Source of the DNA: Escherichia coli
GTDB lineage: Bacteria; Pseudomonadota; Gammaproteobacteria; Enterobacterales; Enterobacteriaceae
Length of the DNA stretch: 64,000 bases
NCBI RefSeq assembly: GCF_048403405.1
Contig: NZ_CP183135.1
Strand: one strand, 5' to 3'
Positions 6,001-9,000 of this stretch are shown here, piece after piece. Position 1 is the first letter of the stretch, and every line of letters begins with the position of its first letter. Position numbers: made by a program.

Positions 6001-9000
6001 ACTTAAACCGTATAGCCAACAATTCAGCTATGCGGGGAGTATAGTTATATGCCCGGAAAAGTTCAAGACTTCTTTCTGTGCTCACTCCTTCTGCGCATTG
6101 TAAGCGCAGGATGGTGTGACTGATCTTCAACAAACGTATTACCGCCAGGTAAAGAACCCGAATCCGGTGTTTACACCCCGTGAAGGTGCAGGAACGCTGA
6201 AGTTCTGCGAAAAACTGATGGAAAAGGCGGTGGGCTTCACCTCCCGTTTTGATTTCGCTATTCATGTGGCGCATGCCCGTTCGAAGGGACTGCGTCGGCG
6301 CATGCCACCGGTGCTGCGTCGACGGGCTATTGATGCGCTGCTGCAGGGGCTGTGTTTCCACTATGACCCGCTGGCCAACCGTGTCCAGTGCTCCATCACC
6401 ACGCTGGCCATTGAGTGCGGGCTGGCGACAGAGTCCGGTGCAGGAAAACTCTCCATCACCCGTGCCACCCGGGCTCTGACGTTCCTGTCAGAGCTGGGAC
6501 TGATTACCTACCAGACGGAATATGACCCGCTTATCGGGTGCTACATTCCGACCGATATCACGTTCACATCTGCACTGTTTGCTGCCCTCGATGTATCAGA
6601 GGAGGCAGTGGCCGCCGCGCGCCGCAGCCGTGTGGAATGGGAAAACAGACAGCGCAAAAAGCAGGGGCTGGATACCCTGGGTATGGATGAACTGATAGCG
6701 AAAGCCTGGCGTTTTGTCCGTGAGCGTTTCCGCAGTTACCAGACAGAGCTTAAGTCCCGGGGAATAAAGCGTGCCCGTGCGCGTCGTGATGCGAACAGGG
6801 AACGTCAGGATATCGTCACCCTGGTGAAACGGCAGCTGACGCGTGAAATCTCGGAAGGGCGCTTCTCTGCCAGTCGTGAGGCGGTAAAACGTGAAGTGGA
6901 GCGTCGTGTGAAGGAGCGCATGATTCTGTCACGTAACCGCAATTACAGCCGGCTGGCCACCGCTTCCCCCTGAAAGTGATCTCCTCAGAATAATCCGGCC
7001 TGCGCCGGAGGCATCCGCACGCCTGAAGCCCGCCGGTGCACAAAAAAACAGCGTCGCATGCAAAAAACAATCTCATCATCCACCTTCTGGAGCATCCGAT
7101 TCCCCCTGTTTTTAATACAAAATACGCCTCAGCGACGGGGAATTTTGCTTATCCACATTTAACTGCAAGGGACTTCCCCATAAGGTTACAACCGTTCATG
7201 TCATAAAGCGCCAGCCGCCAGTCTTACAGGGTGCAATGTATCTTTTAAACACCTGTTTATATCTCCTTTAAACTACTTAATTACATTCATTTAAAAAGAA
7301 AACCTATTCACTGCCTGTCCTGTGGACAGACAGATATGCACCTCCCACCGCAAGCGGCGGGCCCCGACCGGAGCCACTTTAGTTACAACACACAAAAACA
7401 ACCTCCAGAAAAACCCCGGTCCAGCGCAGAACTGAAACCACAAAGCCCCTCCCTCATAACTGAAAAGCGGCCCCGCCCCGGCCCTTCGGGCCGGAACAGA
7501 GTCGCTTTTAATTATGAATGTTGTAACTACATCTTCATCGCTGTCAGTCTTCTCGCTGGAAGTTCTCAGTACACGCTCGTAAGCGGCCCTCACGGCCCGC
7601 TAACGCGGAGATACGCCCCGACTTCGGGTAAACCCTCGTCGGGACCACTCCGACCGCGCACAGAAGCTCTCTCATGGCTGAAAGCGGGTATGGTCTGGCA
7701 GGGCTGGGGATGGGTAAGGTGAAATCTATCAATCAGTACCGGCTTACGCCGGGCTTCGGCGGTTTTACTCCTGTATCATATGAAACAACAGAGTGCCGCC
7801 TTCCATGCCGCTGATGCGGCATATCCTGGTAACGATATCTGAATTGTTATACATGTGTATATACGTGGTAATGACAAAAATAGGACAAGTTAAAAATTTA
7901 CAGGCGATGCAATGATTCAAACACGTAATCAATATCTGCAGTTTATGCTGGTTATGCTGGCTGCATGGGGCATTAGTTGGGGAGCCAGATTTGTCATGGA
8001 GCAGGCCGTTCTGCTTTATGGATCAGGAAAAAACTATTTGTTCTTCAGTCATGGTACTGTTCTGATGTACCTGCTGTGTGTTTTCCTGGTATACCGCCGT
8101 TGGATAGCTCCGCTACCGGTCGTTGGTCAGCTGCGCAACGTTGGCGTACCGTGGCTGGTCGGTGCGATGGCCGTGGTGTATGTCGGTGTATTTCTGCTCG
8201 GTAAGGCGCTGGCTCTGCCTGCTGAGCCATTTATGACGAAACTTTTTGCCGATAAGTCCATACCTGACGTGATCCTGACGTTGCTGACCATCTTTATCCT
8301 TGCCCCGTTGAATGAGGAAACGCTGTTCCGGGGGATTATGCTGAACGTCTTCCGTTCACGGTACTGCTGGACGATGTGGCTGGGGGCGCTGATAACGTCG
8401 TTGTTGTTCGTCGCCGCGCACAGCCAGTATCAGAACCTGCTGACACTGGCAGAACTGTTCCTGGTGGGGTTGATTACATCAGTGGCCAGGATCAGAAGTG
8501 GTGGCCTGCTGCTGCCGGTATTGCTGCATATGGAAGCAACCACGCTGGGTTTACTGTTTGGTTGAAAGTTATATTTTTATTAAACATTGTGCGTTAAAGC
8601 CTGGTGTGTTTTTTTAGTGGATGTTATATTTAAATATAACTTTTATGGAGGTGAAGAATGCATACCACCCGACTGAAGAGGGTTGGCGGCTCAGTTATGC
8701 TGACCGTCCCACCGGCACTGCTGAATGCGCTGTCTCTGGGCACAGATAATGAAGTTGGCATGGTCATTGATAATGGCCGGCTGATTGTTGAGCCGTACAG
8801 ACGCCCGCAATATTCACTGGCTGAGCTACTGGCACAGTGTGATCCGAATGCTGAAATATCAGCTGAAGAACGAGAATGGCTGGATGCACCGGCGACTGGT
8901 CAGGAGGAAATCTGACATGGAAAGAGGGGAAATCTGGCTTGTCTCGCTTGATCCTACCGCAGGTCATGAGCAGCAGGGAACGCGGCCGGTGCTGATTGTC

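Follow-up and report, generated by a model that had tools for sequence, protein, structure and literature searches.

Inverted Ter sites and a probable "G site" priming signal in the repA4 region of an IncFII plasmid

The hairpin interval and its replicon

What role do the short GC-rich hairpins play that lie just past oriR in an IncFII plasmid of Escherichia coli? The question is raised by positions 7400-7780 of a 64,000-nucleotide stretch of DNA (NCBI RefSeq assembly GCF_048403405.1, contig NZ_CP183135.1; this whole stretch is referred to as the window), for which a preliminary description made from the sequence had proposed terminators, a structured RNA or single-strand initiation signals. 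The region from 5.5 to 9.3 kb of the window is a complete IncFII basic replicon: it comprises copB/repA2 (5557-5814), the CopA antisense RNA on the minus strand (5941-6031; Rfam match, 99 bits), tap and repA1 (6116-6973), a DnaA box (7149-7157) and, to the right of this box, the AT-rich stretch of oriR, which extends to about 7305. The hairpin region is followed on its right by a CPBP-family gene (7912-8565) and, beyond this, by pemI/pemK, with the genes that flank the hairpins lying on the plus strand. The interval is the "repA4" region just past oriR of an R100-like IncFII replicon: it is 98% identical to plasmid R100, is found in more than 5000 plasmid records and is carried by 4184 of 5426 complete E. 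coli genomes. GC skew across the window was uninformative because the plasmid is a mosaic.

We consider it likely that the interval is a non-coding, cis-acting replication module beside oriR, in which a Ter fork trap is combined with a "G site" priming signal. The sequence elements, with their conservation, covariation, strand bias and linkage to RepA genes, are shown directly; binding of Tus, use by primase, the precise nucleotide of the start and whatever role the core may have are inferred. Its features are real and functional; they match those described for R1/R100 decades ago and are thus already known in kind, and the current understanding of IncFII plasmid replication is unchanged by these data. 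The locus matters for resistance: in E. coli and Klebsiella, resistance genes are carried chiefly by IncF plasmids, whose stable replication requires the module in cis.

Ter sites and the predicted fork trap

Two Ter sites in inverted orientation are present in the region: 5'-TTTTTGTGTGTTGTAACTAAAGT-3' at 7376-7398 on the minus strand, here Ter(-), and ATTATGAATGTTGTAACTACATC at 7511-7533 on the plus strand, here Ter(+), both with an exact GTTGTAACTA core and a full match to GNRTGTTGTAACTA. The GTTGTAACTA core occurs twice in the window (7380-7389, minus strand; 7520-7529, plus strand) against an expectation of 0.06; both copies show 0 mismatches to the 14-nt consensus GNRTGTTGTAACTA, and there are no other such sites in the 64 kb. 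Both sites fit the definition of the Ter consensus core (G6, and ATGTTGTAACTA or a close variant at positions 8-19). These two sites were absent from the preliminary description, yet they are the most clearly identifiable elements in or beside the interval.

The polarity of the sites was calibrated on TerB, which lies beside tus in MG1655 and whose GTTGTAAC strand is there the plus strand. TerB arrests the clockwise fork, which heads to higher coordinates at this locus, and Ter therefore stops forks travelling 5' to 3' along the GTTGTAAC strand. With this calibration, the site at 7511-7533 is predicted to block rightward forks and that at 7376-7398 to block leftward forks, so that the inverted pair would constitute a small, 140-bp fork trap that can be entered but not left. 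The arrangement corresponds to that of TerR1/TerR2 of the IncFII plasmids R1/R100, which are likewise inverted beside oriR and from which this plasmid, 98% identical to R100 in sequence, differs in nothing; the 14-nt consensus that these sites share with the chromosomal Ter sites of E. coli is exact in both copies. Host Tus would bind the two sites and thereby set up the trap, with Ter(+) expected to halt the rightward fork after one round of the plasmid, before it re-enters replicated DNA; such an arrest would prevent over-replication and keep rolling-circle multimers from forming. In case of R1, replication proceeds unidirectionally by one fork until arrest at an origin-proximal ter/Tus complex, and when this arrest is lost, branched molecules, rolling circles and multimers arise and plasmids are lost (PMC7174701; PMC8347550).

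Homologues of the region were found well outside R100-like plasmids. Positions 7445-7800 of the window recur at 87-93% identity in E. coli plasmids whose initiators are of I-complex type (343 aa), and a scan of species-representative genomes for one invariant 15-mer yielded 120 stretches, about two dozen of which are true homologues; the genera represented are Pantoea, Citrobacter, Klebsiella, Erwinia, Edwardsiella, Pectobacterium, Rahnella, Shimwellia and Pluralibacter. In homologues with enough flanking sequence, a RepA gene in the same orientation precedes the module by 0.5-0.7 kb, with the linked RepA genes belonging to three subtypes that all fall into the Pfam family IncFII_repA. The elements keep to one order: hairpin T is followed by Ter(+), a spacer, the folded core, a short motif and then three or four further hairpins. 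In contrast to the TerR1/TerR2 pair, it is usually only the plus-oriented site that is retained across this wider family: Ter(+) occurs in 25 of 33 homologues, without exception in one orientation and at 86-95 nt upstream of the core motif CGCGGAGATAC, whereas Ter(-) occurs in 8 of the 33. What the comparison adds to the established picture is that the putative priming module travels with three RepA initiator subtypes across the Enterobacterales, that one Ter site generally accompanies it at a fixed distance and that it contains an invariant folded core, the role of the latter being the sole point of some remaining interest.

Conserved hairpins and their strand bias

The preliminary description had cited CGGCCC-TTC-GGGCCG at 7479-7493 as an example of the hairpins, and CGGCCCTTCGGGCCG sits exactly there, forming the tip of a longer hairpin with arms at 7463-7484 and 7488-7509. 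As single-stranded DNA, the 381 nt from 7400 to 7780 are more stable than all 100 dinucleotide shuffles on both strands (z of -2.79 for the plus and -3.44 for the minus strand, with 0/100 shuffles as stable), and most individual hairpins are also more stable than their shuffles. The stems are kept through compensatory changes in 28 related plasmid sequences from many genera of Enterobacterales. A lack of stem conservation across IncFII plasmids, which the preliminary description had named as the outcome that would speak against its proposal, is therefore not what is seen.

The longer hairpin, referred to as hairpin T (7463-7509, minus strand), is located between the two Ter sites and consists of a basal stem, AAAAGCG/CGCTTTT, and an apical stem at 7478-7494, which includes the stem-loop cited above. 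Its stability (7460-7512) is -14.8 kcal/mol on the plus strand and -16.9 kcal/mol on the minus strand (z -2.9 and -4.2, respectively), and its apical stem shows compensatory changes across lineages (GGCCC/GGGCC, CGCCC/GGGCG and GGGCC/GGCCC). Hairpin T is present in 21 of 33 homologues and is more stable on the minus strand in all 15 distinct homologues (15/15).

The folded core (7573-7659, minus strand) is made up of hairpin A (7582-7601), the compound hairpin B and a closing helix (7573-7576/7656-7659); in hairpin B, an outer stem that pairs CGGAG at 7606-7610 with CTCCG at 7648-7652 is combined with inner stems at 7617-7622/7638-7643 and 7626-7628/7633-7635. Taken to 7693 (7573-7693, roughly 90-120 nt), the core is the most conserved part of the module, with 15-mers that stay unchanged from Escherichia through to Pantoea, Erwinia and Edwardsiella. 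Folding of 7573-7659 gives -19.9 kcal/mol on the plus and -25.7 kcal/mol on the minus strand (z -1.4 and -3.05), and the minus strand is the more stable one in 20 of 20 distinct homologues. Covariation was assessed over 7572-7662, with the identical 27 pairs counted on each strand: pairing extends to 98.3% of cells on the minus strand, with 5 pairs changed on both sides and a covariation score that 0/500 shuffles reached (slid controls 32-56% paired), and to 91.3% of cells on the plus strand. In nearly all sequences, two helix positions read G-T on the minus strand and, correspondingly, mismatched C-A on the plus strand. For hairpin T and the core, z values against shuffles of the same strand likewise favour the minus strand; in rightward replication this strand serves as leading-strand template. 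Once the duplex has been opened from oriR, this strand would fold into hairpins, and its stretch from oriR to 7700 may stay single-stranded all the way round until the fork returns; hairpin T and the core (7463-7659), which lie within that stretch, would on this model have been selected to fold on the minus strand.

Further hairpins are found to the right. H4 (7739-7752; CCGGC-TTAC-GCCGG, -6.2 kcal/mol) has a nearly invariant stem and a variable loop; the long hairpin H5 (7758-7800; -7.9 kcal/mol on the plus strand) has an outer stem GGCGG/CCGCC, which covaries (one pair is GC in 17 sequences and CG in 11), and an inner stem at 7767-7774/7788-7794; and H6 (7805-7822; ATGCCGC-TGAT-GCGGCAT, -8.7 to -8.9 kcal/mol, z -4.3 and -4.7) has had all 7 of its pairs changed on both sides somewhere in the family. 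An additional hairpin at 7709-7730, deduced from relatives, lacks stability in this window (0 kcal/mol), with its wobble pairs speaking for the plus strand by 34 cells to 6. For the right-hand hairpins, a model from seven close relatives was used to align the distant ones; in this structure-fitted alignment, which favours pairing, 89% of cells are paired compared to 29-48% in slid controls, and 25 of 30 pairs are changed on both sides compared to 11.7 +/- 1.7 in shuffles. The thermodynamic comparison of strands was uninformative for these hairpins (12 vs 15).

The putative primer start and competing readings

Between the core and H4, a putative primer start motif, CCCTGCCAGACCAT, lies on the minus strand at 7690-7703, with a CTG at 7699-7701. 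This minus-strand CTG is the sole CTG on either strand of the 378-nt module that is invariant in 28 of 28 homologues, and it occurs in the context CCTGC(A/T)AAGCC. In 13 of the 28 homologues the exact decamer CTGC[AT]AAGCC is present, which is identical to the decamer at the G4 start (CTGCAAAGCC) or to that shared by alpha3, St-1 and phiK (CTGCTAAGCC); the decamer of the window itself, CTGCCAGACC, matches a phage start decamer at 8 of 10 positions. The G4 primer is annotated as starting opposite the T of CTG, and the corresponding primer here would putatively begin opposite A7700 and grow rightward. Two other candidates for the start were dropped: a minus-strand CTG at 7566-7568, as the CTG is unconserved, and a TACTG after H4 at about 7735, as it is absent from two close relatives.

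The position of the invariant CTG, about 395 bp right of the AT-rich end of oriR, is of interest in light of plasmid R1: Masai and Arai reportedly found in 1989 that in vitro its leading strand is started from a "G site" that needs primase only and lies about 400 bp downstream of oriR, and Bernander et al. are said to have placed this start about 380 bp downstream of oriR in vivo in 1992. The module at 7573-7822 fits this primase "G site" of R1/R100, which it probably is. Position relative to oriR and location on the leading-strand template are the same as those reported for the R1/R100 site, the module likewise has a CTG start with G4-like flanks and with hairpins 5' of the start, and homologous copies of it lie downstream of I-complex replication origins. 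We thus propose that a primase-dependent single-strand initiation signal lies to the right of the Ter sites, at which leading-strand synthesis would be primed by DnaG from the invariant CTG, with the primer beginning opposite A7700 and growing rightward.

Amongst the three options of the preliminary description, single-strand initiation is the best supported, given an invariant minus-strand CTG in a G4-like motif at about 395 bp from oriR and covarying hairpins on both sides of this CTG, the left-hand ones of which are more stable on the leading-strand template; termination is weakly supported, and a structured RNA is without positive support. It speaks against the priming model that Ter(+) does not let through a helicase that travels rightward from oriR: exposure of the start site at 7700 with Tus bound is not accounted for by the model.

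The resemblance to the phage origins is confined to certain levels. Like the module, the oric regions of G4, alpha3, St-1 and phiK have CTGC(A/T)AAGCC as start decamer, with C-rich sequence ahead of the CTG, and carry several hairpins on the template 5' of the start; as in G4, H4 (7739-7752) and H5 (7758-7800) are found on the 5' side of the invariant CTG when the minus strand is read. Of the three stable stem-loops that characterise a G4-type signal on this side of the start, H4 and H5 fold here and are conserved, and the one nearest the start is unstable. However, the first hairpin of the module is weak and the start lies 17-20 nt away from it, compared to 3-5 nt in G4, and the core, the most strongly conserved portion, sits 3' of the start on the template, where the phages have no comparable element. 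Compared to a G4-type signal the module is also larger, measuring about 260 nt, or 360 nt when Ter(+) and hairpin T are counted in, and has the invariant core 3' of the start in addition. BLAST of the region against phage genomes returned nothing relevant; a covariance model of the G4, alpha3, St-1 and phiK oric gave no match to the module on either strand, with filters at default or off, its best local score (7787-7885, 9.3 bits) not being significant at the scale of the window; the reciprocal plasmid covariance model had no match in the phages; and Smith-Waterman local alignments of plasmid and phage origins scored inside the range of shuffles. The resemblance to G4 therefore rests on the 10-nt start motif and on the general architecture. 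Membership of a family homologous to G4 lacks profile support, and our claim is only that the module may work like such a signal.

The G4 analogy fails to explain the core, because this lies 3' of the start on the template. In four natural variants, an insert of about 175 nt parts the core from the right-hand hairpins, which suggests that these are separate units. The core could conceivably be a distinct, uncharacterised single-strand DNA element of replicons of the IncFII_repA family, a proposal that we regard as doubtful; possible roles include docking or positioning of primase and SSB, PriA-type assembly, or helping the initiating helicase to cope with the neighbouring Tus-Ter complex.

Somewhat less probable still, and in our judgement unlikely, is that the core (7573-7693) is a further single-strand signal in its own right, acting on the plus strand (the lagging-strand template) either as a PriA-type primosome assembly site of the phiX174 kind or as an oppositely oriented primase site, so that both strands would be primed. 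The insert in the four variants is compatible with this, and the plus strand has CGGAGATAC, as in the G4/alpha3 origins, although by our own estimate such a 9-mer match to a phage origin arises by chance about once per two tries. The hexamer AAGCGG, which is common to n'/PriA recognition sites, occurs 4 times on the plus strand and 0 times on the minus strand in 7300-7850, but just one copy is conserved. Similarly, a plus-strand CTG lies 10-30 nt right of the core in most homologues, yet none is invariant and four homologues are without any. The folding of the core itself also argues for the minus strand, on which it is better in 20/20 homologues and on which the two G-T positions pair that are C-A mismatched on the plus strand.

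We assign a clearly lower probability, and consider it very unlikely, that the hairpins belong to a structured RNA or are transcription terminators, for instance with a leftward transcript ending at hairpin T or with an uncharacterised non-coding RNA for control of replication or for plasmid stability. The covariation does include G-U-type pairs, the minus-sense fold is very stable with RNA parameters, and A and T runs flank hairpin T in the manner of a two-way intrinsic terminator. Hairpin T has T4 tails on both strands, yet it was not called by the terminator scan, whose one weak site lies at 7747-7761 on the plus strand. Against this reading stand the orientation of the neighbouring genes, which are on the plus strand, the lack of a sigma-70-like promoter on either strand in 6900-8000 and the association of the module with Ter sites and replication initiator genes. 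Nor was there a match to an Rfam family: a search of 5000-9500 with Rfam 15 gave, beyond CopA at 5941-6031, one match only, which is at chance level (7860-7927; E = 0.72, 20.6 bits compared to a gathering score of 70).

The 128-aa open reading frame from which the region takes the name "repA4" is present on the plus strand at 7336-7722, where the preliminary description had placed it and found it unconvincing; on comparative grounds, it is unlikely to be a gene. When 12 relatives, the window and R100 among them, were aligned, the frame proved intact in these two only: it is broken by indels or early stops in 10 of the 11 other sequences, with R100 as the sole exception. A plasmid at 91% DNA identity has a 2-nt indel in the frame and a stop at codon 64, the remaining broken frames stop inside 61 codons, and in a plasmid that is 99% identical RepA4 is annotated as a pseudogene with an internal stop. 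The 128-aa sequence had no family match in a Pfam and NCBIfam search. As the frame is broken in relatives, the conserved entity is therefore the DNA and not a protein. That the region encodes a RepA4 protein, with the hairpins being incidental, is hardly credible: the frame is intact in the window and R100, and the name is used in some database records ("replication-associated protein RepA4") and in plasmid papers (PMC4398462), but the frame is disrupted in every other relative, even the one at 91% identity, DNA conservation peaks in the stems and the changes are compensatory and not synonymous. We thus rejected a protein-coding reading of repA4, the frame being unconserved and without a family match.

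The repA4 region of NR1/R100 is the same locus as the hairpin interval; its name implies a protein, whereas the comparison made here argues that the reading frame is unconserved. Annotation of the Ter sites and of the probable priming signal, in place of "RepA4" or a hypothetical protein, would correct thousands of records. In R100, the ter sites are described as lying within the repA4 region, which is reported to be required for stable inheritance (PMC4398462, citing Jiang et al. 1993), and transposon mapping in pEC958 found the repA4 region to be required (PMC4398462).

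AAGCGG hexamers and the Ter inverted repeat

Between positions 7300 and 7850 the plus strand holds four copies of the hexamer AAGCGG, a sequence common to n'/PriA recognition sites (at 7352, 7465, 7581 and 7682), and the minus strand has none, the chance expectation being approximately 0.13 copies per strand; of the four, 7581 alone shows wide conservation. The two predicted Tus-binding sites, Ter(-) (7376-7398) and Ter(+) (7511-7533), form an 18-nt inverted repeat (7380-7397/7512-7529) that is 83% complementary, with 114 nt between its arms. When present on one single strand, these arms could pair with each other, which would restore a double-stranded Ter core enclosing hairpin T (7463-7509). 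A search of the whole window using the covariance model built from the oric regions of phages G4, alpha3, St-1 and phiK returned a sole match, at 60869-60965 on the minus strand (8.7 bits, E ~1.5): this match contains a UACAGAGAUAC stretch, appears to sit within a coding region and is probably due to chance.

A CRISPR spacer matching the IncFII region

Just to the left of Ter(-), all 32 nt of window positions 7345-7376 agree with a type I-E CRISPR spacer that E. coli strain 18KM2445 carries on its chromosome (L014:1206-1237), and a canonical AAG PAM adjoins this protospacer on the plasmid (7377-7379). The match represents natural targeting of the IncFII replicon by CRISPR. Strain 18KM2445 was obtained from a dog in Switzerland.

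Distribution and genomic surroundings of the module

In four plasmids (L044, L033, L011 and L037), a structured insert of approximately 175 nt (L044:525-700; L033:11095-11255) separates the conserved core of the module to the right of oriR from its right-hand hairpins. The insert is bracketed by two diverged copies of an AAGCGG..GGCT..CAGG motif, and could have arisen through duplication, through recombination of two modules or as a small inserted element. A single genome, that of Pantoea stewartii CCUG 26359, carries seven module copies on seven separate contigs (L032-L038), which indicates many IncFII_repA-type replicons in one strain. IncFII plasmid sequence was also encountered on contigs labelled as Streptomyces morookaense and as Lachnospiraceae and Clostridiales metagenome bins (L042, L081 and L098): L042 is identical to the region in the window and the other two are close relatives, with contamination or mis-binning the most likely explanation. 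Within the window, the IncFII replicon is flanked on both sides by mobile elements, namely an IS110-family transposase gene just upstream of copB (4130-5191, minus strand) and IS1-like and Tn3-family (Tn5403) sequences directly past pemK (9498 onward).
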